Below, piece by piece: positions 7,804-57,119 of a stretch of DNA of 64,000 nt. The stretch is from positions 224,001-288,000 of the forward strand of contig JBEKKK010000001.1 in assembly GCA_050010755.1 (NCBI GenBank). The letters are read 5' to 3'. Both the position numbers and the translations under genes were made by a program. Positions within the stretch are counted from its first letter, which is position 1, and each line of letters begins with the position of its first letter. A model generated the notes under the pieces. That model saw only the letters and a list, made by a program, of their open reading frames with translations. It made no database searches and was not told the DNA's origin. The DNA comes from Candidatus Bathyarchaeia archaeon. GTDB taxonomy: Archaea > Thermoproteota > Bathyarchaeia > Bathyarchaeales > Bathycorpusculaceae.

Positions 7804-7916
7804 TTTTCTCGTCCTTGAACATGCAATTTTTCGAAGCGGAACATACACCTTTCTATCAAATACGGTTGTTAAAGATAAAGAGAAGATTCAAAACTCGCGA
7901 GCTAAGGAAAATGGGG

Positions 7917-9545
7917 TTAGGGGTAGTGTTGTCCGAAGTGTCTGGCCACGAGTGCGACGTCTCTCATGTTGACTGTGCCGTCGTCGTTGATGTCTGCATT
8001 TGCATTCCAATTGATCGAGCCGATTGTGGATCCGAAGGCTCTTACAACAAGGGCAATGTCCCTCATGTCCACTTTGAAGTCTCCGTTAATATCCCCTGTA
8101 ATCGTTACAACGACATTGCCGCCTGTGCAGTTGTTGTTTGCAGTGTTGGTTTCGCTTGGAACAGGCCAGGCGCAGACGTTTATGGTGTAGTTTCCGTAGA
8201 CCAAGCTTGTGGTGTTACACACGCAGACTAAGATTATTCCTGAGGCTCCTGCTGAAAGAGTGACGTTCACGAATGCAGACGCAATCAGGCTCGTGTTCGC
8301 GTAGACTGTGATGTTGAAGTTTTCCGTGTAGTCGCCTAGGTTGAATACTGGGGCGTTTACGTTCAGGTTGTACCCTTGACCGACGACAGTTTTGGAAGGC
8401 CAGACATTCGTGACTGCTATGTCATGTGGTGACCACGGATTCATCAGTGGATAGTGATCAGTGTTGTTTGCATCTATAACATATGGAGTGTCGCCAATTC
8501 CATCGCTTCCTGTCAAGTTCTGATATGGACCGCTGTAAACATCGGTTCCATTGTAATCGCTCCAATAGTTTCCGCCATAAGGATAACCGTCATCCCAACC
8601 ATTGTTCATCGATGTCTCGAAAATGTAAGCTTGATGGGTGTTGTTGACAACATTGTTGTGATAAATTCGATTGCGATTGGAGCTAGACAGATACAAGCCA
8701 TAACCACAGTTGTCTATATTGTTTCCACGAATGAGGCTTTCGTTACAACTGTATAAAACTAAGCCCTGGCAGGTGCGATCGAAGTTGTTGATGTCGTTAT
8801 CAACAAACCAGTTTCCTTCGGAATTGGCCCATCCTACTATGTACATGTATGAAGTAGTGCAGTTTTGGATGTTGTTATTTGAGAAAACATTGTTGGATGA
8901 TTGATCCATCCATATCGCTGCTGCGTTGTTGAAAAAGCTGTTGTTAGATATGTAATTTGTGCCGGACTGAAACAGATTGATGGCTTCGGCGTTGTTACCA
9001 GTAAGATTGTTTTCTTCGATGGTGTTGTTATAGGAGTTGTTCAGTACTATACCATGGCCCAGATTGTCTGCAATTTGATTGGCATTAATTGTGATGTTAT
9101 TGGATGAAAGCAGTAGGATGCCATAGTTGCTCTGTTCAATGATGTTGTCTGTGACGTTGATGAAGTTCGCGCCATTGAGACAGATACTTGAGTTGGGATA
9201 GTAGAGCCCACTGTTCTTTATCGTGAACCCTGTCAGAACTACACTGTTTGCGATAATGTTTGCTACGATGCCTTCTTTTCCACCATCTATTATTGTCGTT
9301 TCCCTGCTTTCGCCGATTAAAGATAACGATTTGTCAACAGTAACATTTTCATAGTATGTTCCATTTCTGACGAAGACCGTGTCTCCATCACTTGCAGCGT
9401 TTATGGCTCCCTGTATTGTCGGATAATCGTCTGGAACTATGATGGTTGTAGGCTGTGCCTTGACTGGCTTAATGTTGAATGCCAATACTACCATGCCCAT
9501 TAACAATAATGACAACAATATTCCAGAAAATATTCTTCTGGACAT
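7917..9545 (-). CDS. secreted NosD/CASH parallel beta-helix protein with CARDB-like Ig domain and C-terminal dockerin
   Basis: Signal peptide; VPDDYPTIQGAI; Asn-rich PbH1 repeats; GGNYWSDY...DGIGDTPY; twin GDINGDFKVD / ADINDDGTVN EF-hand repeats. Confidence 0.85.
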   Translation of the reverse strand: MSRRIFSGILLSLLLMGMVVLAFNIKPVKAQPTTIIVPDDYPTIQGAINAASDGDTVFVRNGTYYENVTVDKSLSLIGESRETTIIDGGKEGIVANIIANSVVLTGFTIKNSGLYYPNSSICLNGANFINVTDNIIEQSNYGILLLSSNNITINANQIADNLGHGIVLNNSYNNTIEENNLTGNNAEAINLFQSGTNYISNNSFFNNAAAIWMDQSSNNVFSNNNIQNCTTSYMYIVGWANSEGNWFVDNDINNFDRTCQGLVLYSCNESLIRGNNIDNCGYGLYLSSSNRNRIYHNNVVNNTHQAYIFETSMNNGWDDGYPYGGNYWSDYNGTDVYSGPYQNLTGSDGIGDTPYVIDANNTDHYPLMNPWSPHDIAVTNVWPSKTVVGQGYNLNVNAPVFNLGDYTENFNITVYANTSLIASAFVNVTLSAGASGIILVCVCNTTSLVYGNYTINVCAWPVPSETNTANNNCTGGNVVVTITGDINGDFKVDMRDIALVVRAFGSTIGSINWNANADINDDGTVNMRDVALVARHFGQHYP

Positions 9546-9641
9546 TTCTCCTCTCTCCTTTCAGGAACTAAGGATGGGCAATTCAAAGAATTAACACTTG
9601 TGGAACGACTATCTGTTGAACATTACAACGTATCTTGAACG

Positions 9642-9734
9642 CTAGCGCGCGCGAAGTACAACAGATGAATAACTCTTATTTGCGAAACAAACACAATAGG
9701 ATACCACTACAGAGGATAAGCTCGCGCGCGCTAG
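9642..9734. repeat. perfect 13-bp inverted repeat CTAGCGCGCGCGA / TCGCGCGCGCTAG with 67-nt spacer
   Basis: Arms read directly at 9642-9654 and 9722-9734; intergenic. Confidence 0.9.
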
Positions 9735-9756
9735 GAGAAAAAATGGAAGGTGTACT

Positions 9757-10275
9757 TTATGTCACATCTACCGATATCTGCAGGTTTGCTGTGACGGCGT
9801 TAGCACCAGCGGCTGCCTGTGTCTGAACGTATAGTATCCATTGTGTGCTTGCCGGCAGTGTCATGTATGACGTTGTGGTCGGAGTGATCCAAGTGATGCC
9901 TGAAACCGTGTAGTTGAAGGAAGCCTGTGCGCCTCCAGATGTGTTCTCGACAACGAAATTGAAGAATACGAAGTTTGCCACTGTTGCTGTTCCTGTGGCA
10001 GGTGTGATTGAAACGTGGCGTAGTCTGAAAATGTGAGATGCACTGTCGATGTTGCTGATGTTTAGTGGTTGATCGTATGTTAGAGTCGTGTTAGGATATG
10101 CTTTGAGGGCTAGGCTGGCCCATGTTGAGTTGGTTCCCATGGTCGATCCGGTGGGCCAGTCAGTTCCTGAAACAAACACTACAGTCACGCCGGTTACTGC
10201 CGCGCTTGGTTGCATTAATATTGAATAGTATATCGCTGATGCGATGAGCAGTGATAATAGGCGAGCTCGGGACAA
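9757..10275 (-). CDS. secreted hypothetical protein (Thr-rich, beta-sandwich-like)
   Basis: GGAG RBS, hydrophobic signal peptide, N-x-S/T sequons. Confidence 0.6.
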   Translation of the reverse strand: MSRARLLSLLIASAIYYSILMQPSAAVTGVTVVFVSGTDWPTGSTMGTNSTWASLALKAYPNTTLTYDQPLNISNIDSASHIFRLRHVSITPATGTATVANFVFFNFVVENTSGGAQASFNYTVSGITWITPTTTSYMTLPASTQWILYVQTQAAAGANAVTANLQISVDVT

Positions 10276-10410
10276 TTGACCATCTCCTTACCCCAGTGAA
10301 GAATGCACATGACCTAGTATAGACATTGTTTCAAACTTGGATGTATTCCAACGCCGAAAACCGATCAATCGCGAACCCTAGGAAATCTTGACGCGCACGT
10401 GTTTTGCAAA

Positions 10411-10422
10411 TAGCGCGCGCTA
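10411..10422. repeat. palindromic TAGCGCGCGCTA copy of the intergenic (GC)n motif
   Basis: 12-bp perfect palindrome; preceded by ACGCGCACGT at 10391. Confidence 0.9.
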
Positions 10423-10519
10423 CTATCAGAAAACACGCTTATGACGAGCGGAGATTTTCCGCAAACTTTAAGCCGAGTTTGGAAGTAACCGTCTATTCAG
10501 AAACTGGGAAGGACAACCA

Positions 10520-10681
10520 TTGATTATCATTTGGCTCATAGTTTTGGTTGCGGCTCTCGCAGTTGTCTTGTCAACCGTCGCTGTCATAATTTGGCTTATG
10601 AGAAGACGACAATCGGTCAATGGATCCAAAAAGAATCGAGTGCCGCCTCCACCTCCGCCCGCGCTCTGTGATCTCCATTAA
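10520..10681 (+). CDS. small single-TM protein with polyproline tail (not in the ORF track)
   Basis: TTG start; LIIIWLIVLVAALAVVLSTVAVIIWLM-RRR (positive-inside)...VPPPPPP; 53 aa. Confidence 0.45.
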   Translation: MIIIWLIVLVAALAVVLSTVAVIIWLMRRRQSVNGSKKNRVPPPPPPALCDLH

Positions 10682-10920
10682 CACCTAGCCTTATTGCGTC
10701 CTAGGCCTGCCTAATGTGCAAACTTGAATAGATTATTCTTCTAGAACTATCTTCCACAAGCCGTATTTGATTGGTACTGACTATCAAGATTGTACGAGAA
10801 GGGAAAGGACAGAGGGAAAGGGCAACGGGGAAAGGATGGAAAAAATATGCCCTTCCCCTCAGCCATCCGGCTTGTTCTTTGCAGTTGCTATTTAAATAGC
10901 TTCTGGACTCTTCCTTCTGC

Positions 10921-10931
10921 GGCGCGCGCTA
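10921..10931. repeat. GGCGCGCGCTA motif, inverted partner of 12726-12736
   Basis: read directly. Confidence 0.85.
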
Positions 10932-11169
10932 TTGAAGCTTCTCGGCACACATCGGACATTTAAGCGGATAATTGTCTTTCCTCATCATTCTTATTTCACA
11001 AAAAAAGCGCGCACGCTCTATCTCTTTTCAACAGTCGAGATGCCCCTGCTACCGCTGGGTATCGCTCAGCCGCCACACGTGATGCAGCAGAAAAGCTGGT
11101 GATAAGTCCCAAACGAAGAGGCCTTCTTGCGCGCCTCGGTCTTCAGATGCGCGGATATGGTTTAATGAA

Positions 11170-11919
11170 TTAATCCAATAGTTTTCCGAGTTCTCTTAAA
11201 ACTTGTTCTTTTGTCTTTTCTGTGAATTCAGTCGTGACGAACGTTCCTTTCCATGAATCCAAAAACCGTTTGTCGGAGATTTCGGTAATGATCAGTTTCA
11301 GATTCTTCTTTATCATCTCTGGATGAGCTAGTGCCTTCTTTGCTCTTTCCTCCGTATCGTCTGGGATGCCGTTTCTCCAGACTAACGTAGCTATGTCTCT
11401 AATGTCGCTTGGTCTTGCGGACATCATCTTCAAGAGCAAATAATCAGTATAATCAGGAACGAAAATCTCTACTTCCTTTTCAGCGATAGGAATCTTCACT
11501 TTCTTGGTCTTCTGCAAGAACTCCTGAGTTATGTAGAATACCTGCTCATCCGTTCTTCCTCTCACTTCTCCCTCCAGGAAATCGATTGATATCTTTGCAC
11601 CTCTGCTTTCGATCTGAAGGAGCTTGACACATCGTAGAAAACCGTAATTGTCTCTTTTCTCAAAGGTTTCGATGCTTAAGTCTTTAGGCAACAACGTTTG
11701 TATCCTGTCCAAATTCCAACCTTTCGATTTCTTTAGGACGAAATCGCAGTCTCTTGTGTACCTTGAAAATGTCGCGAATGCTCTGAGAGCATAGCCGCCG
11801 ATCGTTACAATCTTAGGATTTTCAAATCCGTTGGTTTGTTTAGAAAAGTGATCGATCAACTTTTCAATCTCTTCTTCTCTTACATTCATAACGTCGACAT
11901 GTCTAACCAAGTTCAGCAA
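11170..11919 (-). CDS. AbiEii/DUF6036-like nucleotidyltransferase (type IV toxin-like)
   Basis: IGGYAL...RYTRDCDF (GG...RxTxDxD) and LKMMSARPSDIRD; start may be the ATG at 11889. Confidence 0.75.
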   Translation of the reverse strand: MLNLVRHVDVMNVREEEIEKLIDHFSKQTNGFENPKIVTIGGYALRAFATFSRYTRDCDFVLKKSKGWNLDRIQTLLPKDLSIETFEKRDNYGFLRCVKLLQIESRGAKISIDFLEGEVRGRTDEQVFYITQEFLQKTKKVKIPIAEKEVEIFVPDYTDYLLLKMMSARPSDIRDIATLVWRNGIPDDTEERAKKALAHPEMIKKNLKLIITEISDKRFLDSWKGTFVTTEFTEKTKEQVLRELGKLLD

Positions 11920-12613
11920 CCTTCTCTATTGCTTCATCAATTTCTCTTCTGACGAATGTGTCTTCCATTTTTGCTTCTCTGTGCCGGAATTCTACTCCGC
12001 TTAATTCGCCTAATTGATGGAAACCATACTCTAAGGCCTGTTTGGCCCTCACGTTTGTCTTTGAGATTCTCTTCCAATATGATTCCTTGTACAATCTATC
12101 CAAATTGATTCTGTCTTTGTTTTCATACAAGGTAGCGAATGCATCTGCGAAAGCCCATTTTTGCAAGCACACTATCACATTTTCTTCCATATCCTCAACA
12201 AACAAGTTTCCCATTTTTCTGTATCTAATCTCAGATGGGTCTTTTGAATACTCTATCTCAAAGGTCCAACCTCTTTTCTTTCCGAACTCTTTCAATGCCT
12301 CTCCGTAAGACCTGTCCTTGACCTTTAATACGTAAATATCTCTATGAACAAAGTCATGGTTCCAGAAGGACGCAGCAGTCTGGGCTGAGACTACTTTAAA
12401 GTTCTTGTCTTTCTCCAAAAAGTCCCAGACATCCTTGACCTTGGTAGGAATCCAATACCAACCCCACTTGACCCTTTCAACTAAGGCCTCCTTGGATAAT
12501 TTGTTCAAGTATTCCTTGGCGTTTGGCTCAACGCCTTTCACAGAGCTAACTCTAACCAAACTTCCTTTAGAGGATCTCAATCTCTTGTTAAACTCTGTCA
12601 AGTATTCGGGCAT
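11903..12613 (-). CDS. AbiEi-like antitoxin / wHTH regulator
   Basis: YLNKLSKEALVERVKWGWY (AbiEi wHTH wing) and VSAQTAA; directly upstream of the NTase gene. Confidence 0.65.
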   Translation of the reverse strand: MPEYLTEFNKRLRSSKGSLVRVSSVKGVEPNAKEYLNKLSKEALVERVKWGWYWIPTKVKDVWDFLEKDKNFKVVSAQTAASFWNHDFVHRDIYVLKVKDRSYGEALKEFGKKRGWTFEIEYSKDPSEIRYRKMGNLFVEDMEENVIVCLQKWAFADAFATLYENKDRINLDRLYKESYWKRISKTNVRAKQALEYGFHQLGELSGVEFRHREAKMEDTFVRREIDEAIEKVAELG

Positions 12614-12725
12614 TGTTGTTCACCTTTTATTATTGTTTGGCAAACTACTTAAAGATATCCGTTCACCTTTCAGCATGTTCTGGCAAAGAAGATGTTATGT
12701 TGGAAAACTCCAAACCTATCATTAT

Positions 12726-12736
12726 TAGCGCGCGCC
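12726..12736. repeat. TAGCGCGCGCC motif, inverted partner of 10921-10931
   Basis: read directly. Confidence 0.85.
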
Positions 12737-12796
12737 TTCCCACGTTTCTTGTGGACGTTTTCCCATGTTTCTTGTGAGCGTGCGCACTTGTTACGT

Positions 12797-12990
12797 TCAT
12801 GCTTTTTTAGAAATGCTGATTTGGTGCTCTCTCAAGACAACGGCGACAGCGAAGACTACGGTCAGCGCGACTAGGCTTAGCACTGTCGGTGTTAGGCGGA
12901 TGCCCCCCGGCGTGTAGTTTAGGAGTAGGCCCATGATGGGAACGAAAGCCAGGCTCATGCCTATACTGAGGGCTGTGCGTTCGATGATGA
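12797..12990 (-). pseudogene. C-terminal fragment of a DUF1616-type membrane protein
   Basis: IERTALSIGMSLAFVPIMGLLLNYTPGGIRL matches the DUF1616 signature (ER.ALS.G.S...P..GL.LNYTPWGIRL); N-terminal part is missing. Confidence 0.65.
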
Positions 12991-13162
12991 AGTTAGTATT
13001 TTCTGTAATATTATATGAGGAAGGACAGAGAGGCATTATTTCCGTTTTTGGGCATAGCCGCAAGTTTGTCACTTTCATTTTTCCATGGTGTTTTACAATT
13101 GTTGTGGATATACCTTTTTATTTTAAAACAACACGTATTAAAGTGGATTGGAACGGATCGAG

Positions 13163-13543
13163 ATGCCGAAACGCAATGACTTGGAACAGAAGGCTCTGCA
13201 ATTCATAGTGAACACCGGTTTCAATGGGGTTCTTCAATCAGACCTGTGGCATGAACTCGGAGCAACCAGTCGAGAAGGCTCTAGAATATCGTTGAAGCTG
13301 GAGATTAAGGGACTCATCCGTCGAGAGAAAGAGCTTCGAGAAGGAAGATGGACATTCAGACTTTTCCCGAAGAGGTTGCCGGCCTCAATCGATTCCATAG
13401 CGGACTGTCCATGCCTAATGTGTCCAGATAACCCCCGATGCGACCCATCAAGCGCAACTTCACCCCAAACCTGCGAGCGCCTCACGGACTGGCTCCTCAA
13501 CATATCTGGAACCGCCCAGCAAGGCACGATGGGTGACAGTTAA
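13163..13543 (+). CDS. archaeal Rpc34/C39 homologue (TFE-beta): wHTH plus Fe-S cysteine domain
   Basis: GVLQSDLW.ELG..SREGSRI..KLE.KGLI.RE wHTH; PCLMCPDNPRC...SPQTCERLTDWL. Confidence 0.75.
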   Translation: MPKRNDLEQKALQFIVNTGFNGVLQSDLWHELGATSREGSRISLKLEIKGLIRREKELREGRWTFRLFPKRLPASIDSIADCPCLMCPDNPRCDPSSATSPQTCERLTDWLLNISGTAQQGTMGDS

Positions 13544-13545
13544 TC

Positions 13546-14160
13546 TCGCCAAAAGCGTGGATCCAGGACAGGAAAAGAGACTACTACTATCAAAAGGCAA
13601 AACAGGAGAAATACCGTTCCAGAGCCTCGTACAAGTTGTTCCAAACAATCCAAAAATACCATTTTATAGAATTCGGCGATGTCGTCGTCGACTTAGGCGC
13701 GGCGCCTGGAGGATGGATTCAGGCGGCGAGAAAAACGGCGGGAAAACGAGGCTTCGTCCTGGGCGTCGATTTGAAGCACATCGAACCTTTTCCGCAGGAT
13801 TATGTCAGGACAATAATCTGTGACATTACGGAACAGGATGCTGCTCAACAAATTTCACAGATGCTTCCTAGAAAAGCTGATGTGGTGATTTCGGACGCCT
13901 CTCCCAACATCTCGGGAATATGGGATGTTGACCACGCTCGACAAATAGATATGGCACAGCATGCGCTGCAAATAGCTTTAGAGACGCTCAGGCCCGGAGG
14001 CAACTTCTTCGTGAAGGTCTTCCAAGGTGACATGCTTGACGGTTACACGCATGAGGTGAAGCAGCACTTTGAAACCGTCCTGGTGATAAAGCCCAAAGCA
14101 AGCAGGGCCAAGAGCTCGGAGATGTTCATTCTAGGACGGAATTTGCAAGAGGCTGCTTAA
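13546..14160 (+). CDS. rlmE: 23S rRNA 2'-O-methyltransferase RlmE/FtsJ
   Basis: DYYYQKAKQEKYRSRASYKL, DLGAAPGGW, VISDASPN, KVFQG, KPKASR..SSE; the conserved N-terminus begins 30 codons before the tracked TTG. Confidence 0.9.
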   Translation, partial: SPKAWIQDRKRDYYYQKAKQEKYRSRASYKLFQTIQKYHFIEFGDVVVDLGAAPGGWIQAARKTAGKRGFVLGVDLKHIEPFPQDYVRTIICDITEQDAAQQISQMLPRKADVVISDASPNISGIWDVDHARQIDMAQHALQIALETLRPGGNFFVKVFQGDMLDGYTHEVKQHFETVLVIKPKASRAKSSEMFILGRNLQEAA

Positions 14161-14209
14161 GCAGCAAACATAAATTCTATCAGTTGATTTATGTAGATTC
14201 GGTGAAAAC

Positions 14210-14902
14210 CTGAGAATCATCGCGGCGGACTCGTCTGCAGCCGTTTTGAACGAGAAGTTCGAGCCCTTGTCGATTGTGGCCGCAGCGTCAGTCCTAGTGG
14301 TTCCGCCCTACCGAGAAGCAAGCGCGTTCTTGGCAGAGCCGATTTTTGCAAACGCAGCCAACGGAAGCGAAGTCGTCGTTCACGAGGCGGAACTCTGCAG
14401 AGAACTTATAGGAAAAGTGAAGGCAGACGTGGTGCACTTGGACATGTCTCTGGGATCTACTCCACTGGAACAGCTTTCACCGATTCAATTCACTAACATG
14501 AGAATATCCTCCAAGGCAAAGCAGCACCTTCTCAAAATCTTGCCAAGGATAAGAAAGATTGCGAATGAGATAACGCTGAAGCACGGAGCAGACGTGTTGG
14601 CGATAGGCAAAGAAAGCATCCCTGTGAGAATTGCAGAGTTGACGGCAGGCGCGCACGCAATACTGTACGCGTCTGAAAAGGCCGTCGCAGAAGGAAAGCC
14701 GCTCCTTCTGGGCCTGCCCTCCAGATGCCAACCCCGCTTCACCGAAGGCGCAGTGAGCCTCTACTCACTCATGGCCGCAGAACACGACGTGAGAGGCTCC
14801 GCAGAAGATTCAACGAAAACCCTAGACAAGGTTAATATCGCGGAAATGTTAAACCCAGTTGCAAGAGGCTTTCGAACCTTAAGAATAACGCCTAAAAACT
14901 GA
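14210..14902 (+). CDS. DUF4152 family protein
   Basis: CTG-start extension LRIIAADSSAAVLNEKFEP..VAAASVLVVPPY; VHLDMSLG; IGKESIPVRIAE. Confidence 0.75.
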   Translation: MRIIAADSSAAVLNEKFEPLSIVAAASVLVVPPYREASAFLAEPIFANAANGSEVVVHEAELCRELIGKVKADVVHLDMSLGSTPLEQLSPIQFTNMRISSKAKQHLLKILPRIRKIANEITLKHGADVLAIGKESIPVRIAELTAGAHAILYASEKAVAEGKPLLLGLPSRCQPRFTEGAVSLYSLMAAEHDVRGSAEDSTKTLDKVNIAEMLNPVARGFRTLRITPKN

Positions 14903-14918
14903 ACGAGGATGATGTGCC

Positions 14919-15497
14919 ATGGGTATGAGTTTGTGGAAAGGCGCCTCCTCAAGAGGCAGAAGGATAATGATTATCGTTGCATTTTTGCTATTCGCAGTAT
15001 TGGTGACCATAATCGGCATTCTAGCTCCCCTGAGCTCTCAACAGATCGCAAGCGAGAACAGCGAATTGAACAGTACACAACAACAGATCCAAGGCATGGA
15101 TTTTGCGCATCGAACTGTGGCAATATTCCTGAACAACTTTGAGATATGTCTCCTGATGTTTGTGCCTTTCTTGGGAATCTTCATAGGAACATTTACACTA
15201 TTCAACACAGGCAGTGTGCTCGCAGCGCAGACGATAACCATAAACGCGAGCAACGCCGCTCGCATTCCTCCCATTCCTGCCGTTCCTCCCATTCTTGTCT
15301 TTGGGTTCCTGTTTGTTTTTCCGTTCGCATGGCTGGAATTCATATCGTACTCCACAGCTCTCTCAGAGGGCTTCTGGCTCATCAGACGCGGCTTACAGGG
15401 CGAATTGAAACGAGAAATCAAAAATCTTGGAAAACTCATCCTGATTACTGCAGCATTGCTTGCGGCAGGGGCCTTAATAGAAGCAGCCCTTATCTAA
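14919..15497 (+). CDS. SpoIIM/DUF95-like membrane protein
   Basis: IFLNN...P..G...N.G, P.AWLE and C-terminal AGALIEA motifs; 4-5 TM helices. Confidence 0.75.
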   Translation: MGMSLWKGASSRGRRIMIIVAFLLFAVLVTIIGILAPLSSQQIASENSELNSTQQQIQGMDFAHRTVAIFLNNFEICLLMFVPFLGIFIGTFTLFNTGSVLAAQTITINASNAARIPPIPAVPPILVFGFLFVFPFAWLEFISYSTALSEGFWLIRRGLQGELKREIKNLGKLILITAALLAAGALIEAALI

Positions 15498-15566
15498 ACC
15501 CTCAGCTTAGCGTTGTGGGTTTGCAGACGGAAGGCCACAACCTCTGCCGCATTCGCGGGACTTGAC

Positions 15567-16424
15567 TCAGCCTCTTGCAATTTTCAGGTTAATATCTAAA
15601 GCTCTCGGGCTCTCTGTTATTTCTCCCAAGCTTACAATGTCAACTTTCGTTGAGGCGTAAGCAAGAACGGTCTCGGCGGTGATTCCGCCGCTGGCTTCGA
15701 TCAACACTTTTCCGAGAAAACCAGCTTTCTCCAGAAGTCTCATTGCCACCTGCACTTGTTTTGGAGAAAAATTGTCCAACATGATTATGTCGGCTCCCGC
15801 CTCTGCAGCTTTCACGGCGACAGCGGCGCTGGGCACTTCAACCTCTATTTTCTTGCTGAACGAAGCTCTCTCCTTAGCGGTTCTGACGGCCTCTCGCAGG
15901 CTTCCGGCCATAGCGATGTGATTGTCTTTAATCAACACCATGTCGTCAAGATGAAGCCTATGCGTGTCGCCTCCGCCCAAAAGAACCGCTTTCTTGTCAA
16001 AATAAAGAAGCCCCGGCGCCGATTTCCGTGTACACGCAATTCTCGTTTTAAGCCCTGCCTTCAGGATCATCTTCACCAGCTTCCTCGTTGCAGTTGCTAT
16101 GCCGCTCATACGCGAGAGAAGGTTGAGCAGCGTCCGTTCCACCGAAAGGATTGTCCTCGCGTCACCAGATATCCTCATTACGACCTGATTAGCCTCCACT
16201 TCGTCCCCGTCCCCGAATAAAGCTTGAGTCTCGAGTCCCAAACTCTCAAGAAGAACCGTGGATTCCTCGATTCCAGCGGCGACCCCTGACTCTTTAAACC
16301 TCACCTCAGCCTCCCCAGTTGCACCGACCTGAACTATCAGCGCCGTGGTTATGTCTCCTTCTCCTACGTCTTCGGCCAACATGTTCCGAAGCCTATCTTC
16401 CAAGATTTTGTGGGGCAAGAACAT
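15567..16424 (-). CDS. nadC: quinolinate phosphoribosyltransferase
   Basis: EDVGEGDITT, ERTLLN, TRKSAPG, HRLHL.D, IKDNH, MLDN, EASGGI. Confidence 0.95.
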   Translation of the reverse strand: MFLPHKILEDRLRNMLAEDVGEGDITTALIVQVGATGEAEVRFKESGVAAGIEESTVLLESLGLETQALFGDGDEVEANQVVMRISGDARTILSVERTLLNLLSRMSGIATATRKLVKMILKAGLKTRIACTRKSAPGLLYFDKKAVLLGGGDTHRLHLDDMVLIKDNHIAMAGSLREAVRTAKERASFSKKIEVEVPSAAVAVKAAEAGADIIMLDNFSPKQVQVAMRLLEKAGFLGKVLIEASGGITAETVLAYASTKVDIVSLGEITESPRALDINLKIARG

Positions 16425-16573
16425 GCCCGTATTTCTTAATCTTCTAGCCTAAAACACTTGTCTTCTTTGGGGCCTGTCAATCATCGTTATTAGGGCGTGC
16501 GCACCAGCTAGTACATTTCGAGATTATCGACCAAGACGGATTCTTCTTCGAGCGGCTGCGATATGTAGCTACC

Positions 16574-17206
16574 TTATAGGAACATAGCATATAGGACTGA
16601 GTCTGCAGTTACGGTCACAGTTGTTGTGTTTCCAAAGATTTCTTGCCCATTGAAGTTCCAAGAATAGAACATGAATGGTGGCGTAGCGTCAATGGCTGTA
16701 AAGGTCATGTTAGTTCCTACTGGCACGGTGTATGTTCCAACATCGGGGCTTATGTCTCCGTATGGGTATGTCACTGGTTTAAAGCAGAACTTTAGCACTG
16801 TCAAAGTAACATTATTGGTTGGTGGCGGTGTCACTGGCGGTGTTGTTGGGGGCTGTGGGGACTCTATTGGATTGAATATTGCGATAAGAACGTGGTCGCT
16901 GTTCATTGTTATTGTTATTGTATTTCCTTCTGTCGTGACATTGTACATACTGTCTAGTATCCATGAGTCAAAATACCATCCTGGAATTGGATGTGCAATC
17001 ACGTCTACAACAGTTCCATTAGGATAAGTATTGATGCCTGGACTTGGGATTGTTGTCCCATAATCAGTTGCCCATCCAGAACAAGGTTCTGTTTTTATTG
17101 TTAGCGTACAGAAAGTTTGCGCTCGCGTGTCATGGACGACGCCCAAGGACAACACGCTGATAACCAGAAGAATCAATAGTGCTGAGGATGCTGCTCTCTT
17201 CAACAT
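16574..17206 (-). CDS. secreted protein with two InlB B-repeat-like domains and a Pro/Thr linker
   Basis: Signal peptide; G.T.PSPG..TY..GT.V...A.P..GW.F.SW motif twice; PQPPTTPPVTPPPT linker. Confidence 0.7.
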   Translation of the reverse strand: MLKRAASSALLILLVISVLSLGVVHDTRAQTFCTLTIKTEPCSGWATDYGTTIPSPGINTYPNGTVVDVIAHPIPGWYFDSWILDSMYNVTTEGNTITITMNSDHVLIAIFNPIESPQPPTTPPVTPPPTNNVTLTVLKFCFKPVTYPYGDISPDVGTYTVPVGTNMTFTAIDATPPFMFYSWNFNGQEIFGNTTTVTVTADSVLYAMFL

Positions 17207-17372
17207 TCTCCCTTCTACTGGATATAGAAGTAGAAAATTGGAACTAATTAACACCTATGGAACACTCTTCTATTGCAAATCAGAATTTCCACAAGGATGA
17301 GGTATCAAATGCAAAGCCCGCGCTGTCTCGGTTTCTACTGAGCACGAACGCGCTGGATTTTAGATAACGACG

Positions 17373-17384
17373 GCGCGCGCGCTA
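17373..17384. repeat. GCGCGCGCGCTA motif copy
   Basis: read directly; intergenic. Confidence 0.85.
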
Positions 17385-17400
17385 AGAAACGTTCACAAAA

Positions 17401-17760
17401 TCAGCTTTCTTTCATGAAGCTTTTTGCCAAGGGGTCACCTTTCTTGGTCAACACGTACCTTCGATACGTGTCTCGGCTGGTGAATCTTAATTCACCCTTG
17501 ACGAGGTTAGCTCTTTCCGGCATGTTCAGATCCATCTCGCTTGGTTGATTTCCGTTGGGATACTCCCTTGAGCCAATATTACTAGATCATATCTCTTTGC
17601 TTTTTTGATGGCAAGCATGAGAGCCTTGAATCTTCGGGGTCCCTCTTCATTTATCTGTTCTTTTTCCCTCTCGAAGTCTTCCTCCACCACCTTTTCAAGA
17701 TATGCTCCCAACAACAATGACATTTTGACCCCCGAATCAGCTATGTCACTGAGGAGATAC
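17401..17760 (-). pseudogene. frameshifted hypothetical gene with wHTH-like C-terminus
   Basis: ORF 17526-17723 continues in another frame as MDLNMPERANLVKGELRFTSRDTYRRYVLTKKGDPLAKSFMKES* (Y.LT.KG wing motif). Confidence 0.45.
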
Positions 17761-18004
17761 GAAATTTATGGAAAGCAAGAAGAAGAACTGAGGGCTGTCT
17801 TCACATGCGAAACGAAACCTCCTGTCGCGCGAGTCTTTTGGAGGCGAAAGAAGCGAAGCGCACGCTAGTGAGTTGCAAAGGCCATTGTCAACAACTGTTG
17901 ACCTATTGTTTAGGTTTGGTCAAGAACACAGGAATTATCTGTGCGTCTTTGGTTACAGCCTGTTGTCGTTGGCTGCTATGCATGGCCGACTTGAGAAAGA
18001 TGAC

Positions 18005-18601
18005 ATGGTGACGGTTCAGGCTCGGAGGGTTGAAGCGTTTGGGAAGTTGAGGCTAGGATTTACGCTGTCAATAGTCTCAGTTGTTATGTTCGCGTTAAGC
18101 ACTCTCGGGGCGTTGAGCCTTCTTGGAACGAATTTTCTGTTTGTTCTGGTTCCAGCAACCTATTTTCTGGGCATCTATGAACGAGCAAGCGGTTGGAAAC
18201 TCTTAGGCTTTGGGAAAACAGAAACGGTTATGTGGCTTAGTGCGATTCTCCTGGCTCTTTCTCCGTTGAGTTGGGTCTTTGCTGCAGGTTCGGGTTTGTT
18301 CTACTCGTACATCACAATTGACGCACTCTCTCTGGTCCCTCCAGCACTGTGGGCATTCTACACGATTGTTGAGAGTCACAACGTCGGGGAACTGGAGAAA
18401 AAACTGGGCTTGAACCTTAGACGAGGAAGAATCTTCGCTTTGTGTGGAATCCTGACCCTTATCGTCGCATATGGGGTTGCACTTTTTTCAGGGATTGGTT
18501 CTGCAACCTTCTACCTTCTGCCATTCAATTTGATCGTTTTCGCAGCTCCATTTCTGATCCTTTCCTGCGTCACGTTCATCAGAAAACTCAAACTCAAGTA
18601 G
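18005..18601 (+). CDS. multi-pass membrane hypothetical protein
   Basis: about 6 hydrophobic segments; ATG at 18005. Confidence 0.6.
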   Translation: MVTVQARRVEAFGKLRLGFTLSIVSVVMFALSTLGALSLLGTNFLFVLVPATYFLGIYERASGWKLLGFGKTETVMWLSAILLALSPLSWVFAAGSGLFYSYITIDALSLVPPALWAFYTIVESHNVGELEKKLGLNLRRGRIFALCGILTLIVAYGVALFSGIGSATFYLLPFNLIVFAAPFLILSCVTFIRKLKLK

Positions 18602-18609
18602 CACGCGCT

Positions 18610-19242
18610 TTATTTCTGCGCATCCTTCGGAGAAATGACTTCGACAGGACCGTTAGGGCTAGTTTCTTCTGCTATGACACACTGAAACTTGTATACTTTC
18701 GTCCCCTGTCGAAGCCAATAGTCCGAGAGCAAACCAGCTTTGTTACAACATTGACACAAGAATTCCTGTGCATCCCAACCCCACTCAACCGGCACTTGAG
18801 GCAGCAACAGTCCCTTGTACATGCCACTCTCAACGATGAGCCCGTCCTCACCCACCTTGACTTCGGTGCAGTATTCTTTTGGATTCTTTGCTTTTATCAG
18901 ACTTGGAGGAGTGAGAACGCTCACTTCGAAGACCACATGTTCAAGTTCGCCTAGAGACATGGGGGAAAAACGTGGGTCTTGAGTCGCAGCGTTGATTGCC
19001 GAGTCAATTACAGCCCGCGCCAAAGGCAAAGTGGGATACGGGAAGCCAATGCATCCTCTCAGTTCCTTTTCTCCGTTTGATATGCTGTTTATCGTGACGA
19101 AAACGCCGCTTGGCTGCAGGAGCTTTTCAGACACGTCCTTTGGAACATCTATGCATTTTCTTGTTCTTAGGTAGTGCTCGACGGCTTTGCGGGCGAGTTG
19201 GACGAGGAAAGTTCCTTCCTCCGAGTTTAGTTTAGATTGCAA
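18610..19242 (-). CDS. AMMECR1 / TIGR00296 family protein
   Basis: GVFVT, LRGCIG, DPRF, EVSVLTPP, GLLLPQV. Confidence 0.95.
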   Translation of the reverse strand: MQSKLNSEEGTFLVQLARKAVEHYLRTRKCIDVPKDVSEKLLQPSGVFVTINSISNGEKELRGCIGFPYPTLPLARAVIDSAINAATQDPRFSPMSLGELEHVVFEVSVLTPPSLIKAKNPKEYCTEVKVGEDGLIVESGMYKGLLLPQVPVEWGWDAQEFLCQCCNKAGLLSDYWLRQGTKVYKFQCVIAEETSPNGPVEVISPKDAQK

Positions 19243-31188: not shown

Positions 31189-31371
31189 CGCTATCACTTT
31201 GGGCAACACTCATGCAACGTCTGCTTTAATAAATTCCCCTAGGAGGGTTCTGTTAACTCTTCGGCGCTTTTCAATGTTGATGAACAAGACTAGTTTCTGG
31301 AACGTACTGAACCAAGGCTCAGACAGACATATATTTTCCAATTGTCAATGTTAGATTGGAGGAGTTTAAGC

Positions 31372-32067
31372 ATGAGTGGAACAAAAGAAAGAAAAATCAC
31401 TCGAAAAGGGGTCCTTGTTACGCTTGGAATAATCTGCATCATTTTAGTAGCCTCCTTAGGCGGTGTGGTTGCAGCATATACATTAATGATAAACGACAAA
31501 AACAACACAATCTCATCCTTAACCAATCAGATTTCTCAATTAAACTCTAGTATAGCAAATCTTCAGAGCCAAGTTGCCTCCGAAAACTCCACGATTAATT
31601 CCCTGACCTCTCAGGTCGCAAATCTGCAAAAAGAATTAAATCCGAATACAACTTACACGGCGGCAGGAGTTCTCGACGGGTTGGAACTCACTATGAGGCT
31701 CGAAAATATCGTTTACATTCTCGGCGAACCAGTAAACATTACGCTCACAGTCACCAACATAAGCAATCAGACGATGAACTATAACTTCGAACACCCAAAC
31801 TTTGACTTTCGAGTTTACAACGACACGAATGACAACCTGTACCAATGGTCGAACACCCAGGTTTCTCTTAATTATGGCTCCATAATACCTCTCAACCCTG
31901 GCGAGAGTCTTGCTTCAGGTAATTTGGTTTGGCCTCAGACTTGCAACGTTATGGATGGTTCGCAAAGCTTTCCCGTTTCGCCAGGAACATATTACATTGT
32001 TGGATACGACCTAGGTAATGGTACGCAGACGGGCCCGATACAAATAACCATATCCCAGCCAATCTGA
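31372..32067 (+). CDS. membrane-anchored protein with coiled-coil stalk and BsuPI/Ig-like domain
   Basis: N-terminal TM; repeats TISSLTNQI / TINSLTSQV; GEPVNITLTVTN...FDF.VY..YQWS...LNPGES...PGTY. Confidence 0.7.
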   Translation: MSGTKERKITRKGVLVTLGIICIILVASLGGVVAAYTLMINDKNNTISSLTNQISQLNSSIANLQSQVASENSTINSLTSQVANLQKELNPNTTYTAAGVLDGLELTMRLENIVYILGEPVNITLTVTNISNQTMNYNFEHPNFDFRVYNDTNDNLYQWSNTQVSLNYGSIIPLNPGESLASGNLVWPQTCNVMDGSQSFPVSPGTYYIVGYDLGNGTQTGPIQITISQPI

Positions 32068-32403
32068 TGCCCTTAGGAACCTGTCTCAAACCTCTGATGC
32101 TGACTTGTCTTCTTGATCAGAGAAATCCATTTGCTTCATCAGACTCGATATTCGCCTTTTGTGAAGGAGTTTTTCCGTTTAGTGCTGTAGACGCGCGCGA
32201 GCAAGTTTTTAGAAAGTCTTTTTCATCCACCTGTGCTTCCAGTTCCTTCCCAAGATAGGCCCCCCAGTCAAATCCAATACTAAGTTATTCGTTTAGAGTC
32301 TTACGTATTCTGAACCCTGACCCACCGTCTCAGTGGCGTAAAATCAGTACCGATAAGCGTAAATATGCCTTGAAATAGTAAAAGAGGCTACTGAGGACTC
32401 TTT

Positions 32404-35372: not shown

Positions 35373-35382
35373 TAGCGCGCGC
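35373..35382. repeat. TAGCGCGCGC motif just downstream of the TATA-like box of the COG2403 gene
   Basis: minus strand reads TTTATATGG-AAT-GCGCGCGCTAG. Confidence 0.8.
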
Positions 35383-36602: not shown

Positions 36603-37235
36603 TTAGAATTTGTTGGCTAAGCCTTTCACCCTATTGAGGAACTCTTCCCTTTCTTTTTCAACCTCTTCCTTTCTTCTCAACAGAAACTCCAGCTCTTCGG
36701 ATATTTCCTCCAGCCACTGTTCCAAAGCCGCATTGCTCTCTTTGGTGGTCAGTTTTGCGATGTATCTTGACACGTCTTGAGCTGCGTTCTTCTTCAGCGA
36801 GCGCAAGGGGAAGTTGATTTCCTGAAACTTCGAGAAAGGAAAGAAATGCCTAGTTGAACGCGGTTCCATCAGACGGCCACTGACGCCTGCTGCTATGACT
36901 TTCTCGACGGTTATTTCGTTGTCGACCCCGTCCGTGTATCGATGTATTCTTCTTTTTCCGACATGTATCTTGCCCTTGAATACATCTGTGAGAATGACAG
37001 GTATGAGTTCATAGCCGAGGCTTTTCAATGCGAGCCAGCGGTGCATGCCATCCAAGATGACATGGGTTTTCTCGTCGACCACGATTGGATACTTCAGCAC
37101 TCCGTCGTTGATAATTTCTTTTCGCAGGAGCTCAAGGTAAAAGGGGGAGCCCTTTTCATGGGGCTTGAGCTGATCAACCCGTAATAAGGTCACTTTGGCA
37201 GCGACGCTGTCGACTCTTTGCACAGTAGTCGTCAC
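36603..37235 (-). CDS. ParB/Srx-fold protein resembling the free-serine kinases SerK/SbnI
   Basis: LKPHE, PIVVD, ILDGMHRW.AL..LG, T.EKVI..G..GRLMEPRSTRH.FPF; starts 12 nt after the trpB2 stop. Confidence 0.7.
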   Translation of the reverse strand: MTTTVQRVDSVAAKVTLLRVDQLKPHEKGSPFYLELLRKEIINDGVLKYPIVVDEKTHVILDGMHRWLALKSLGYELIPVILTDVFKGKIHVGKRRIHRYTDGVDNEITVEKVIAAGVSGRLMEPRSTRHFFPFSKFQEINFPLRSLKKNAAQDVSRYIAKLTTKESNAALEQWLEEISEELEFLLRRKEEVEKEREEFLNRVKGLANKF

Positions 37236-37247
37236 ATTATTCGCCTG

Positions 37248-38609
37248 TCAGCTGCTGAAAATGGGAACTTCGATTTTTTGAGGCTCGTATTCCACGAGTT
37301 TACCTGCGAGATACTGCTCGTACGCTGAGAGATCGAGAAGCCCATGTCCGCTGTAATTCATTGCAATGACTTTCTTTTCCCCTGTTTTCCTGCAATTCAG
37401 AGCCTCATCCATCACGAACTTCAGGCTATGGGCGGTTTCGGGAGCCGCTATCATGCCCTCCGTTTGAGCCAGAAGCCTAGCCGCCTCGAAAACCTCGGTT
37501 TGATCGTAGGCAACTGAACGGGCATATCCTTTGTGGATGAGGTATGAGATGAGCGGTGACATGCCGTGATACCTTAGGCCTCCAGCGTGGACTGGCGGAC
37601 ATGCGTAGTCGTGTCCTATCGTCAGCATTTTGATTAGCGGAGTCATCTTGGCGGTGTCTCCATAGTCGTACGTGTAGACTCCCCTAGTCGTGTGCGGAAC
37701 GGCTTTCGATTCGCAAGCAACGAATTCTGTCTCGGTCCTCCCTTTGAGCTTGTCCATCATGAAAGGAAAGCAGAAGCCGCCGTAGTTAGAGCCTCCTCCT
37801 ATGCAGCCGCAAACGAGATTCGGGTTCACGTCTATGCTTTCGAATTGTTTCTTCGCTTCCAATCCTATTATAGTCTGATGCATCAGAACATGGTTTAGGA
37901 CAGAGCCGAGAGAATACCGCGTGTCTTCGTGTGCAAGCGTGTCTTCGATGGCTTCGCTTATAGCAATGCCGAGCGTTCCGGGATGATTGGGATTTTCTTT
38001 CAGCAGTTTCCGGCCAAATTCTGTTCGGTCGCTTGGTGAAGGGCACATTTCAGCTCCGTACAGCTGAGCCATCGTCCTTCTGCCGGGCTTGTTTTGATAA
38101 CTCACGCGAACCATGTATATTTGGCATTTGAGTCCGAAGAGCACGGTGGCCAAAGCTAAGGCTGTTCCCCATTGTCCAGCCCCAGTTTCAGTGGCTAATC
38201 TTTGGATTCCCTGCTTCCTGTTGTAGTACGCCTGTGCAATAGCTGTGTTGGTCTTGTGACTGCCTGCTGGGCTGAAGTTTTCACATTTGAAGTAGATTTC
38301 GGCGGGCGTCTTGAGGAACCTCTCGAATCTTTTGGCGCGGTACAGAGGTGTCGGGCGGGGGAGTCTCAAATAAGCATCAAGCACTTCATCTGGTATCTTT
38401 ACGAACCGTTCCGTTGATACTTCTTGTGCGACGAGTTCTTTTGCGAATATTCTTTCAAGAACTTTTGGGTTTATCGGTTTCAACGTTGTTGGATCCAGTG
38501 GGGGCGACAGGGGCTCAGGAAGATCTGCTTGTATGTTGTACCAGGATGATGGCATTTCTTCGGGTTCCAGTTGAATCACATACTCTTTGTTCTTGCTTGT
38601 TTGCGTCAT
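37248..38609 (-). CDS. trpB2: tryptophan synthase beta chain type 2
   Basis: WYNIQADLP, RPTPL.RA, GSHKTNTA, TETGAGQWG, GSVLNHV, GGGSN, HAGGLRYHG, SGHGLLD; no trpA nearby. Confidence 0.95.
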   Translation of the reverse strand: MTQTSKNKEYVIQLEPEEMPSSWYNIQADLPEPLSPPLDPTTLKPINPKVLERIFAKELVAQEVSTERFVKIPDEVLDAYLRLPRPTPLYRAKRFERFLKTPAEIYFKCENFSPAGSHKTNTAIAQAYYNRKQGIQRLATETGAGQWGTALALATVLFGLKCQIYMVRVSYQNKPGRRTMAQLYGAEMCPSPSDRTEFGRKLLKENPNHPGTLGIAISEAIEDTLAHEDTRYSLGSVLNHVLMHQTIIGLEAKKQFESIDVNPNLVCGCIGGGSNYGGFCFPFMMDKLKGRTETEFVACESKAVPHTTRGVYTYDYGDTAKMTPLIKMLTIGHDYACPPVHAGGLRYHGMSPLISYLIHKGYARSVAYDQTEVFEAARLLAQTEGMIAAPETAHSLKFVMDEALNCRKTGEKKVIAMNYSGHGLLDLSAYEQYLAGKLVEYEPQKIEVPIFSS

Positions 38610-38623
38610 TCTACCTTCTCCTA

Positions 38624-38707
38624 TGTACATTTATGTTCGTTCATGTACTTTATTGCTCAGACTGTTACGCAGGAACATATTTATACTTTCTTGCACAGAA
38701 ATGTGCA
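38624..38707. promoter_or_regulatory. phased TRP-box-like TrpY operator array in the trpB2/trpY divergent promoter
   Basis: TGTACA 38624, TGTTCG 38634, TGTACT 38644, TGCTCA 38654; GGAACA 38672, TATACT 38682, TGCACA 38692, TGTGCA 38702 (two 10-bp phased sets). Confidence 0.7.
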
Positions 38708-38723
38708 TTAAGGAAACCGTAAC

Positions 38724-39227
38724 ATGTGGAACAGCGCAAAGAAATACTTTGAGGGGCAGCCAGAAAGGCTCAAGGTGGCACGAGTGCTGATAGAAAATGG
38801 TCTGGCCGTAAGAAACGGAAAAATCTACCTTAACGAGATTGAAGTTCCCCCTGTTAGAATTGCGCGGGCGGCCGGAGTGGACAGACGGACAGTCGTAGAA
38901 ACGTTGAAAGCAATTGGATCCGACCGAGGACTTCGACTAATATTCCAAGACATTAAATCTGCAGGTCTTTCGCTGAGAGAAATTGCCAAGGATCTAAACC
39001 TTGGCGTGGTTGAAATAACGCCCGTGGATGCGAAGATCCCGGGCATATTAGCAGGATCAGCCATGATTCTTGCAAAGAATGGCCTAAGCATAAGACAGGC
39101 AATCGTAGATGACCCAGAGCTTTCACCAGAACCCAAACTCACGTTGATTGTGGAGAGAAAAATCCCCGGAGAAATCATCCCGGAGCTGCTCAACGTAAAA
39201 GGAGTAGCAAAGGTTTCAATCTACTAG
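38724..39227 (+). CDS. trpY: TrpY-like HTH-ACT regulator (COG2150)
   Basis: MW....FEG.P.R..VAR, ARAAGVDRRTV, GVVEI, PGILA, SIRQA..DPEL, C-terminal GV..VSIY; divergent from trpB2. Confidence 0.8.
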   Translation: MWNSAKKYFEGQPERLKVARVLIENGLAVRNGKIYLNEIEVPPVRIARAAGVDRRTVVETLKAIGSDRGLRLIFQDIKSAGLSLREIAKDLNLGVVEITPVDAKIPGILAGSAMILAKNGLSIRQAIVDDPELSPEPKLTLIVERKIPGEIIPELLNVKGVAKVSIY

Positions 39228-48509: not shown

Positions 48510-48601
48510 CTTCGTGATGCTTGAGATTATCCTTGGCCTGGATATATTAACTCGCTGCAAAAGAAGGGGGAACGTCAACCATAAATAAGTCGGAACCCGA
48601 G

Positions 48602-49222: not shown

Positions 49223-49465
49223 AGGAAAGGACAAAACGATCTATTTTTCCAGACGCTTCAATCATGTCTTCAATCGACCTGAACCCGATGTCAAAACCAA
49301 AGCGTCCTAATGACAACAGTCCGAGCAGGGTGCACACAAGTAGAGTCTTGGACGCTCTAGAGCTTGAGCTCCAGCGTCTAAAAGTGGTTTATTCTAACAA
49401 TTTTGCATGTCTCCCAAAAGCAATAAATAACTTGAAATTTAATGGTTGAATAAACGTGATGGTAA

Positions 49466-57113: not shown

Positions 57114-57119
57114 TAGTGC

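Follow-up and report, generated by a model that had tools for sequence, protein, structure and literature searches.

In a 64-kb stretch of the genome of a Candidatus Bathyarchaeia archaeon (G000:C1:224001-288000; hereafter the window), a short alternating-GC palindrome recurs between genes, and an earlier note had proposed that it marks the ends of exchangeable gene segments. Comparison with related genomes suggests what produces this pattern: GCGCGCGC, which on each side independently is flanked by A (left) or T (right) in about half of its copies and by TA in about a quarter, looks like the point at which illegitimate rearrangements were joined in this lineage of Bathyarchaeia. The new junction of a deleted, inserted or replaced segment very often bears the palindrome, even when the parental ends are free of the motif. 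We assign a probability of about 40% to the motif being the joint mark of an end-joining or segment-capture reaction, with its copies later re-used as microhomology. A joint mark was preferred over a signal or an attachment-type (att-type) site because the features fit together: the motif has no anatomy beyond 8–12 nt, follows no rule of position or orientation, is concentrated in young DNA, stands flush with breakpoints, appears in one step at deletion joints, has A/TA flanks that are independent of each other, and varies in its number of GC units.

The breakpoints were located in two congeners of the window genome, by comparing three contig stretches of G002 (475 kb) with contig C1 of G004 (387 kb); both are metagenome-assembled genomes. 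Since their aligned blocks are 89–97% identical (about 95%), the breakpoints between them are sharp. Ends of megablast blocks, checked by eye, were taken as breakpoints, which yielded 30 synteny junctions with 120 breakpoints. An alternating-GC run of at least 6 nt was found within ±5 nt of 23 of the 120 breakpoints, while at control positions shifted by offsets of 20–400 nt it was found in 28 of 1458 cases (1.9%) on the variable side and in 8 of 2400 cases (0.3%) on the conserved side (p ~1e-16). The earlier note had asked whether indel breakpoints of relatives fall on the motif; at nucleotide resolution they do, at 23 of 120 breakpoints compared with ~2% of shifted positions. At least one motif-bearing breakpoint was present in 17 of the 30 junctions. 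Copies stand flush at one end of many inserted or replaced segments (e.g., junctions 2, 7, 9, 13, 15, 16, 18, 19, 25, 26 and 30), and at junction 11 the motif-coincident breakpoint lies within a coding sequence.

Several of these alleles could be polarized, using a single outgroup (G000) together with gene remnants. In G002, TAGCACGCGC stands for 2,551–2,589 nt of G004 and G000; the 3' end of the third open reading frame (ORF) of the lost segment survives, and at neither end of the 2,551-nt ancestral segment do G004 and G000 have the motif. Conversely, 992 nt of G002 are replaced by GCGCGCGCG in G000 and by GCGCGGACG in G004. A 129-aa ORF spans the right junction: most of it belongs to these 992 nt, and the short alleles retain just 11 of its codons, the last ones, behind the motif. 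In another case 313 nt are replaced in G002 by TAGCACG, which abuts a native CGCGC, and at junction 9 a 122-nt filler with two copies, one of them flush with the flank, takes the place of 1.2–1.5 kb in G004. Insertion alleles at junctions 13, 15, 18 and 19 bear the motif where the empty alleles are without it. Because the motif arises de novo at joints whose ancestral ends had none, an att-type site is disfavoured.

Existing copies also take part in later events. The ~25-kb deletion in G002 (junction 7) has a joint reading TTAGCGCGCGCT, flush with the right flank, and begins at a copy that G004 keeps at the left breakpoint in the degenerate form TTAGTGCGC. At junctions 12 and 16, insertions lie directly beside a pre-existing copy. 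The same observations, and the fall of breakpoints on the motif in general, would be expected if cassettes were bounded by very short sites or hot spots of recombination that are exchanged copy by copy, whether by a site-specific enzyme, by microhomology joining or by a topoisomerase-type reaction, with solo copies remaining after cassette loss. This main rival, a weaker form of the idea in the earlier note, we regard as possible, though doubtful. Each de novo copy at motif-free ancestral ends would need an extra step of insertion followed by excision, filled alleles are often without the motif at one or both ends, and a site of only 8–12 bp would have to work with neither flanking arms nor an orientation rule.

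Variants within the species were read from contigs of independent peat and soil runs that contain the stretch, none of them an RNA run; gaps in contig cover were not taken as evidence. Contigs of run X4 cover window positions 7249–11235 and 16742–19396 with 0 differences; the window copies are therefore not an assembly artefact. One contig of run X6 (depth 6, side 46) joins 16484 to 17872, skipping 1,387 nt (window 16485–17871), and its joint contains 23 other letters, including GGCGCGCGCTAG. This variant looks as if the left side of the 17375 copy had been fused to the right side of the 17858 copy, as exchange between recombination sites would produce. Run X6 also has one extra GC unit at the palindrome at 10411..10422 (GC inserted behind 10412). 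A joint that goes back 3057, from 10973 to 7917, could likewise reflect a circle or a duplication made at recombination sites; with one contig and side 32, it is too weak to be called a circle. The joints 7940->8071 and 7946->8551 fall in the repetitive NosD gene.

The motif punctuates whole islands of the window genome. In G000:C1, the islands at 1.350–1.372 Mb and 0.945–0.969 Mb have a copy in nearly every gap between ORFs. Their genes encode two CAP12/Pycsar-type TIR proteins, a helix-turn-helix protein, a lipocalin, a lactonase, an ion exchanger, an old yellow enzyme-type (OYE) reductase, PhzF, an N6/N4 methylase and a P-type ATPase, all accessory and unrelated in function. Arrays with about one copy per gene boundary would suit a recombination site, the more so as the first island is headed by a 432-aa tyrosine recombinase (PF00589). 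The 5' end of this recombinase, however, runs into the 3' end of the RNase P RNA gene, an arrangement that the integrase of an ordinary integrative element would show. The first island is therefore taken to be an integrated element, for which the RNase P RNA gene apparently serves as attachment site. The island integrase does not explain the motif punctuation within the island. With this one integrase as query, no integrase-like match was found in the window, where no family-wide search was made; the closest match was at C1:204521-205339. The idea of a dedicated recombinase linked to the motif received no support.

The RNase P RNA gene, an archaeal one by its Rfam match (196.9 bits), and the recombinase occupy G000:C1:1348651-1350134 (L149:1316-1623 and L145:6837-8135), and the recombinase heads ~23 kb of defence and accessory genes. 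The two TIR effector genes are neighbours (L145:9736-10797 and L145:11524-12255; G000:C1:1351735-1354254). One of the two is fused to a DnaJ-type zinc-finger region, and the second ends in a TAG stop codon that is itself part of a motif copy.

In the window, TAGCGCGCGC and its complement gave 8 strand-hits, compared with a mean of 0.05 in 100 dinucleotide-preserving shuffles, none of which reached 8; the GCGCGCGC core has 8 copies where 0.81 are expected. All exact copies that the earlier note listed (9643, 9724, 10411, 10922, 12726, 17375 and 35373) were found again, and according to our own ORF list every site that it named lies between ORFs. Its degenerate copies at 10391, 11006, 12777, 16495, 17858, 18599, 21199 and 32191 were confirmed and are one or two transitions off the core, while the one at 7894 (CTCGCGAGCT) is weak.

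The G000 assembly comprises 2.19 Mb in 8 contigs with 47.7% GC, and its genes were called with a home-made, crude codon-usage ORF caller. It contains 129 exact TAGCGCGCGC/complement 10-mers, 112 of them fully intergenic at a non-coding fraction of 22% (binomial p ~4e-55). The core GCGCGCGC occurs 253 times and is the most over-represented intergenic 8-mer of the genome (422 two-strand counts vs. 23 expected). Other dinucleotide repeats of four units have 7–81 copies each; general dinucleotide slippage was rejected as the source, since only (GC)4 is enriched and (AC)4 and (GT)4 are not comparably so.

Beyond the core, little is conserved. The preceding base is A in 135 of the 253 copies and the preceding dinucleotide is TA in 64, and the right side mirrors the left. 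TA stands on both sides of 10 cores, on one side of 109 and on neither side of 134, which fits two independent ends. Position counts over 40 positions on each side give at most 0.2 bit each and no flank consensus. Mirror-position complementarity is 0.24–0.30 at distances 1–20, that is, there is no symmetry past the core, and no hairpin or cruciform potential was found around it. When the 466 flanks of 233 sites were compared all against all, a single cluster of 3 similar flanks emerged, and no families. An extended motif or a miniature inverted-repeat transposable element (MITE) was rejected, as neither the position counts nor the flank comparison show anything shared.

The motif is equally indifferent to the layout of genes. 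Its orientation relative to neighbouring genes shows no bias (upstream 54/45, downstream 66/57), and the spacers that contain it (61 co-directional, 19 divergent, 30 convergent) are roughly proportional to total spacer length. No fixed distance to TATA-like boxes or ATG was found, nor any oligo-T near the motif in the position counts; with no stop-proximal preference either (27 vs. 21, hand count), a promoter or terminator role was discarded. Scans for sigma-70 promoters and intrinsic terminators are of bacterial type and uninformative for archaea. The inverted arrangement (GC)nTA-[cargo]-TA(GC)n described in the earlier note can be seen locally in the window and is not a genome-wide rule: 63 neighbour pairs divide into 21 -+, 17 --, 14 +- and 11 ++ (p = 0.14). 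The absence of a flank consensus, a hairpin, a fixed gene distance and an orientation rule excludes integron attC sites, plasmid dif (pdif) sites, repetitive extragenic palindromes (REP), MITEs, promoters and terminators.

These data also bear on whether the motif might be a binding site (for an insulator, a chromatin protein or a global regulator) or a Z-DNA-prone element that is selected at gene boundaries, the coincidence with breakpoints being secondary. The strong intergenic enrichment (212 of 253 copies) would agree with such a role, as would the excess of the exact core over every one-off variant (253 vs. 17–60) and the copy at 35373, which lies between a TATA box and a conserved gene start and is kept in three species (G000, G002 and G004). 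Yet two further congeners, G003 and G001, have an unrelated 7–8 nt in place of this copy within otherwise conserved flanks, and no preferred position or orientation exists relative to starts, stops or TATA boxes. Motif density in G000 is 0.52/kb in unaligned and 0.15/kb in aligned intergenic DNA, so that non-conserved spacers are 3.5x as densely populated as conserved ones. Were the motif selected as a boundary signal, this would also not account for breakpoints flush with it, one of them in coding sequence, or for joints that replace whole genes. Alternating GC is a classic Z-former, which favours the Z-DNA variant, whereas a length of 8 bp, which would be short for Z-DNA, counts against it. 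In its favour, Z-DNA is reported to be mutagenic in eukaryotes, as summarized in PMC6957503. Altogether, we consider a selected binding site or Z-DNA element quite improbable.

Concentration of the motif in young DNA is evident in the window itself. The core genes of the window are 73–87% identical to those of the four congeners, and the window copies from 9643 through 17375 are all confined to two segments (7857–13114 and 16475–18622) in which the congeners carry other DNA instead, 0.6–1.3 kb in the first and 1.2–6 kb in the second. Together with the indel breakpoints of the close pair, this bears out the proposal that exchangeable segments have their ends marked by the motif. On the 387-kb contig of G004, the 58% without alignment to G000 contains 73 of the 79 copies. 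Such a distribution is hard to reconcile with a DNA-uptake or self-recognition tag that biases DNA exchange within the lineage: over-representation restricted to one lineage and a position on accessory genes that differ between strains would fit a tag, but the motif is rare in core DNA, nearly absent from coding DNA and present at a density of just ~0.06–0.16 per kb, and a tag leaves the de novo copies at deletion joints unexplained. We regard a tag as very improbable.

The features of the window that bear on the motif are collected in Table 1.

Table 1. Motif copies and variable segments in the window (positions are those of the 64-kb stretch)
Feature	Position	Strand	Context
Exact TAGCGCGCGC	9643..9652	+	97 nt upstream of NosD-dockerin gene start
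Exact copy, GCGCGCGCTA on + strand	9724..9733	-	23 nt beyond stop of ORF 9757-10275
12-nt palindrome TAGCGCGCGCTA	10411..10422 (hits 10411/10413)	.	Both strands
Exact copy	10922..10931	-	Downstream of AbiE-like pair
Exact copy	12726..12735	+	112 nt upstream of AbiE-like pair
Degenerate copy AGCGTGCGCA	12777-12786		Adjoins DUF1616 gene fragment
(GC)5 then TA	17373..17384	-	Between Flg_new-repeat gene and small ORF
Exact copy	35373..35382	+	Conserved 63-nt spacer, 6 nt downstream of minus-strand TTTATA box
Variable segment 1	7857..13114		NosD-dockerin gene, secreted ORF, AbiE-like pair, DUF1616 fragment
Variable segment 2	16475..18622		Degenerate copies 16495, 17858, 18599; exact copy 17375
1.09-kb stretch	31258..32348		In G000; G004 has 5-nt AGCGC completing TAGCGCGCGC, G002 has 43 nt
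Ancestral segment: ParB_N-like ORF, pyridoxal phosphate (PLP) enzyme, most of 167-aa ORF	36603..39152		In G000 and G004; G002 has only TAGCACGCGC
Start of ~25-kb stretch that runs past window end	48515..64000		In G000 and G004; deleted in G002

Gene content of the window was as the earlier note had described it, Pfam matches backing Kae1, the NosD/beta-helix/dockerin protein, the AbiEii-like nucleotidyltransferase, nadC and AMMECR1. The AbiEii/DUF6036-like nucleotidyltransferase forms a two-gene pair (window 11170-12613) with an upstream 236-aa ORF that has no Pfam match, and the pair has a match in contig C1 of G002 at 80% DNA identity. Rfam gave 0 matches at gathering score over the whole window, and no tRNA genes were found in it. 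At the locus that corresponds to window 7857-13114, G004 has a single-copy TnpB gene (OrfB_IS605 with zinc ribbon; L001:3981-5093), and OrfB_IS605 matches lie at the same locus, between kae1 and an FtsJ-like gene, in G002 and G003; TnpB was not found in G000 or G001. That it stays at one locus in three species could mean that this TnpB is domesticated. As a determinant of the motif TnpB was rejected, being single-copy and syntenic in G002–G004 and not found in G000 or G001. Nor is the DUF1616 fragment (12797-13078) a remnant of the gene that the relatives have there, since theirs is TnpB and the two have no similarity.

Two other repeats of the window genome deserve mention. A second, unrelated repeat of ~75 nt consists of tandem ACATTACA followed by an A-run and GGGGAGGGG (e.g., C1:128360-128440, C1:195243-195330 and C2:8436-8520, with one partial repeat at window 9620). 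ACATTACA occurs 142 times in G000, and by enrichment its word family ranks second in intergenic DNA. Copies are nearly always intergenic and are often paired at a spacing of ~170 nt. At G000:C1:790453-792430, a 1.9-kb segment lies between inverted repeats of ~25 nt (GGGGTAAAGTTTACCCCCAACCCAA); it contains an AT-rich gene of foreign composition, missed by the gene caller, and this gene in turn is bracketed by GCGCGCGC copies.

We next consider how widely the motif is spread. Of 121 genomes sampled from the family, 18 have at least 50 copies, and these belong to many genera; the backwards control was low. Contrasts within genera are sharp, with 282, 23 and 5 copies in one genus, 77, 0 and 0 in another, and 164, 19 and 13 in a third. 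A first count had suggested a genus-specific trait, which the patchy family-wide pattern overturned. Patchy, burst-like spread within genera (282 vs. 23 and 5; 77 vs. 0 and 0) is what could be expected if the motif were the footprint or terminus of an unrecognised mobile element, be it a cut-and-paste element with GCGC ends and a TA target or nuclease-released, motif-ended fragments captured at breaks. The preference of the flanks for TA, the 10 full TAGCGCGCGCTA palindromes of G000 and the 122-nt filler at junction 9, which reads as two fragments each ending in the motif, point in the same direction. Nevertheless, next to no sequence is shared beside the motif (one 3-flank cluster in 466 flanks), no intact element was seen, and TAGCGCTA, which direct annealing of GCGC overhangs would be expected to form, has only 11 copies. 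Viral contigs scanned for a 14-mer gave 36 stretches, mostly of high GC, none of them clearly motif-dense at comparable GC. A mobile element is thus an unlikely source.

As a joint mark, the motif could arise as follows. Broken or incoming DNA ends would be bridged via a self-complementary alternating-GC stretch. This stretch might consist of short tails, one on each 3' end and often placed after an A, which pair with each other; alternatively, it might come from a captured fragment that ends in the motif. The bridged joint would then be sealed. Once in place, the 8-bp all-GC palindrome would be the best microhomology of the genome, at copies of which later deletions and swaps would begin and end. 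Islands would turn into strings of genes with one motif between each, selection would purge copies inside genes, and old copies would decay through transitions. In a stronger form, which we put forward tentatively and with a good deal less confidence than not, a dedicated joining activity stitches any two ends via the linker (TA)GCGCGCGC(TA), each illegitimate event leaving a mark of 8–12 nt, and the marks seed a self-reinforcing, recombinase-free shuffling of cassettes, a barcode of gene gain and loss.

A number of observations weigh against the motif as a joint mark. No motif was found in 13 of the 30 junctions; these include cases of intragenic divergence and ordinary mobile-element insertions, of which one has a direct repeat of 19 bp and another adjoins a tRNA. 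Many insertion alleles have the motif at one junction only. The breakpoint statistics rest on one pair of metagenome-assembled genomes, and the population evidence consists of contigs rather than raw reads. Polarity calls are limited, as homologous recombination can carry alleles from strain to strain; the scar allele of junction 14 is common to G000 and G004 and is not in G002. Two scars of G002 have the identical variant TAGCACGCGC, which untemplated tailing does not predict. Finally, the motif could be linked to no enzyme. G000 (93% complete, with only a stand-alone phosphoesterase) and G001 gave no match to Ku or LigD-PrimPol, and neither did five motif-rich genomes with 88–282 copies and 91–100% completeness, while nine Ku-positive genomes have at most 15 copies. 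The RVT_1 reverse transcriptase was found in 0 of 31 genomes, and a telomerase-like copier of a template is therefore without a candidate.

Ku nonetheless occurs in some of these genomes. G002 has a complete LigD-PrimPol/Ku/ligase-phosphoesterase operon, and Ku and LigD-PrimPol matches were also found in G003 and G004. The operon of G002 (L141:8205-11271, on G002:C3) adjoins a DUF72 gene and a HerA-like ATPase; the loci in other genomes are on G003:C9, G004:C16 and G010:C53. Ku was found in 17 of the 121 family genomes, 8 of the 18 motif-rich ones and 9 of the 103 others, an odds ratio of 8.4 that is uncorrected for genome size and relatedness. As a determinant of motif load, Ku-LigD is neither necessary nor sufficient. 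C5 cytosine methylase was rejected as a driver: none exceeded the Pfam cut-off in the genus's five genomes, where one sub-threshold match was seen in G002. In Saccharolobus, as summarized in PMC12019639, the replicative primase participates in end joining and can both act as a terminal transferase and anneal microhomologies. Since an archaeal primase combines terminal transfer with microhomology annealing, a Ku-independent route is conceivable.

If the motif is a joint mark, it provides a single-nucleotide record of the gain, loss and swap of DNA in an uncultured, globally abundant group of archaea, and pangenome dynamics could be read directly from sequence. It would further imply break repair or segment capture with a fixed palindromic filler, for which the literature, searched mostly as abstracts, gave no description in bacteria or archaea. 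The enzyme would be mechanistically interesting and possibly of practical use as a sequence-defined end joiner. If the motif is instead a minimal recombination site, its 8 bp would be far shorter than attC and pdif. Either reading accounts for defence and surface genes sitting in motif-punctuated arrays.

Several known systems resemble the motif in part. Abundant, lineage-restricted intergenic palindromes are also typical of REP sequences, their REPIN doublets and MITEs, but these have 20–40 nt or more of conserved sequence, with hairpins or terminal inverted repeats, whereas nothing is conserved or symmetric past the 8–12-nt core of the motif. REP/REPIN elements in particular are imperfect hairpins with a conserved head in genomes that encode a Y1 transposase (RAYT), while the motif shows neither hairpin potential nor flank families. 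A MITE or transposon footprint would have shared ends and a target-site duplication; here, no flank families exist and TA is found per side in about a quarter of the copies. DNA uptake sequences are enriched in the core genome, including coding DNA, in contrast to the bias of the motif for non-aligning (73/79) and intergenic (212/253) DNA. The GC clusters of yeast mitochondria are likewise short GC-rich palindromes in spacers, linked to deletion endpoints and TAG-type flanks. They differ in being several times longer, in their family-specific sequence and in belonging to a eukaryotic organelle.

Among systems that move genes, the earlier note had likened the motif to the ends of integron cassettes or pdif modules. 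This likeness did not hold at the level of the sites, which show no flank conservation, no symmetry past the core and no shared element ends. Integrons have been reported in Archaea, as summarized in 10.1101/2022.02.06.479319 / PMC9668308. As in integron cassettes, small and mutually unrelated accessory genes are lined up in arrays with a single repeat at each boundary, strain differences break at the repeat, and one array has a tyrosine recombinase at its head. Unlike attC, an imperfect palindrome of 55–140 nt with conserved inner and outer core sites, the motif is 8–12 bp long and has no conserved arms. It is also without a common orientation, dispersed genome-wide and formed de novo at deletion joints, and the integrase at the array head extends into the RNase P RNA gene in the manner of ordinary integrative elements. 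Modules of the pdif/Xer type are bounded by 28-bp XerC/XerD-type sites in alternating inverted order, unlike the 8–12-bp core of the motif with neighbour orientations of 21, 17, 14 and 11 among 63 pairs.

The promoter/stem-loop (PeSL) cassettes of T4-type phages, as summarized in PMC2839356 and PMC4122927, also share features with the motif. In both, short intergenic repeats are concentrated in hyperplastic regions, and indels and replacements between close relatives break there (here, at 23 of 120 breakpoints, in 17 of 30 junctions and in the X6 allele). By the same summaries, PeSLs are units of a promoter and a terminator that recombine between pre-existing homologous copies, whereas the motif has no such anatomy, measures 8–12 bp and is also found at copy-free joints.

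To our knowledge, no described end-joining system leaves one constant palindromic filler, and in a literature search, mostly of abstracts, neither the motif nor scars of this kind were found described. Prokaryotic Ku-LigD and archaeal microhomology end joining are treated in PMC12019639, PMC8656161, PMC4797286 and PMC7072297. Unlike what Ku-LigD scars would require, Ku-LigD modules were not found in all motif-rich genomes, and the motif is low in the nine Ku-positive genomes mentioned above. In other respects the two are alike: in Ku-LigD and microhomology end joining, as at the motif, joints are independent of homology, flanking DNA is lost and nucleotides are added. Terminal transfer followed by microhomology annealing, as summarized for the archaeal primase, is the chemistry that bridging by tails would require.

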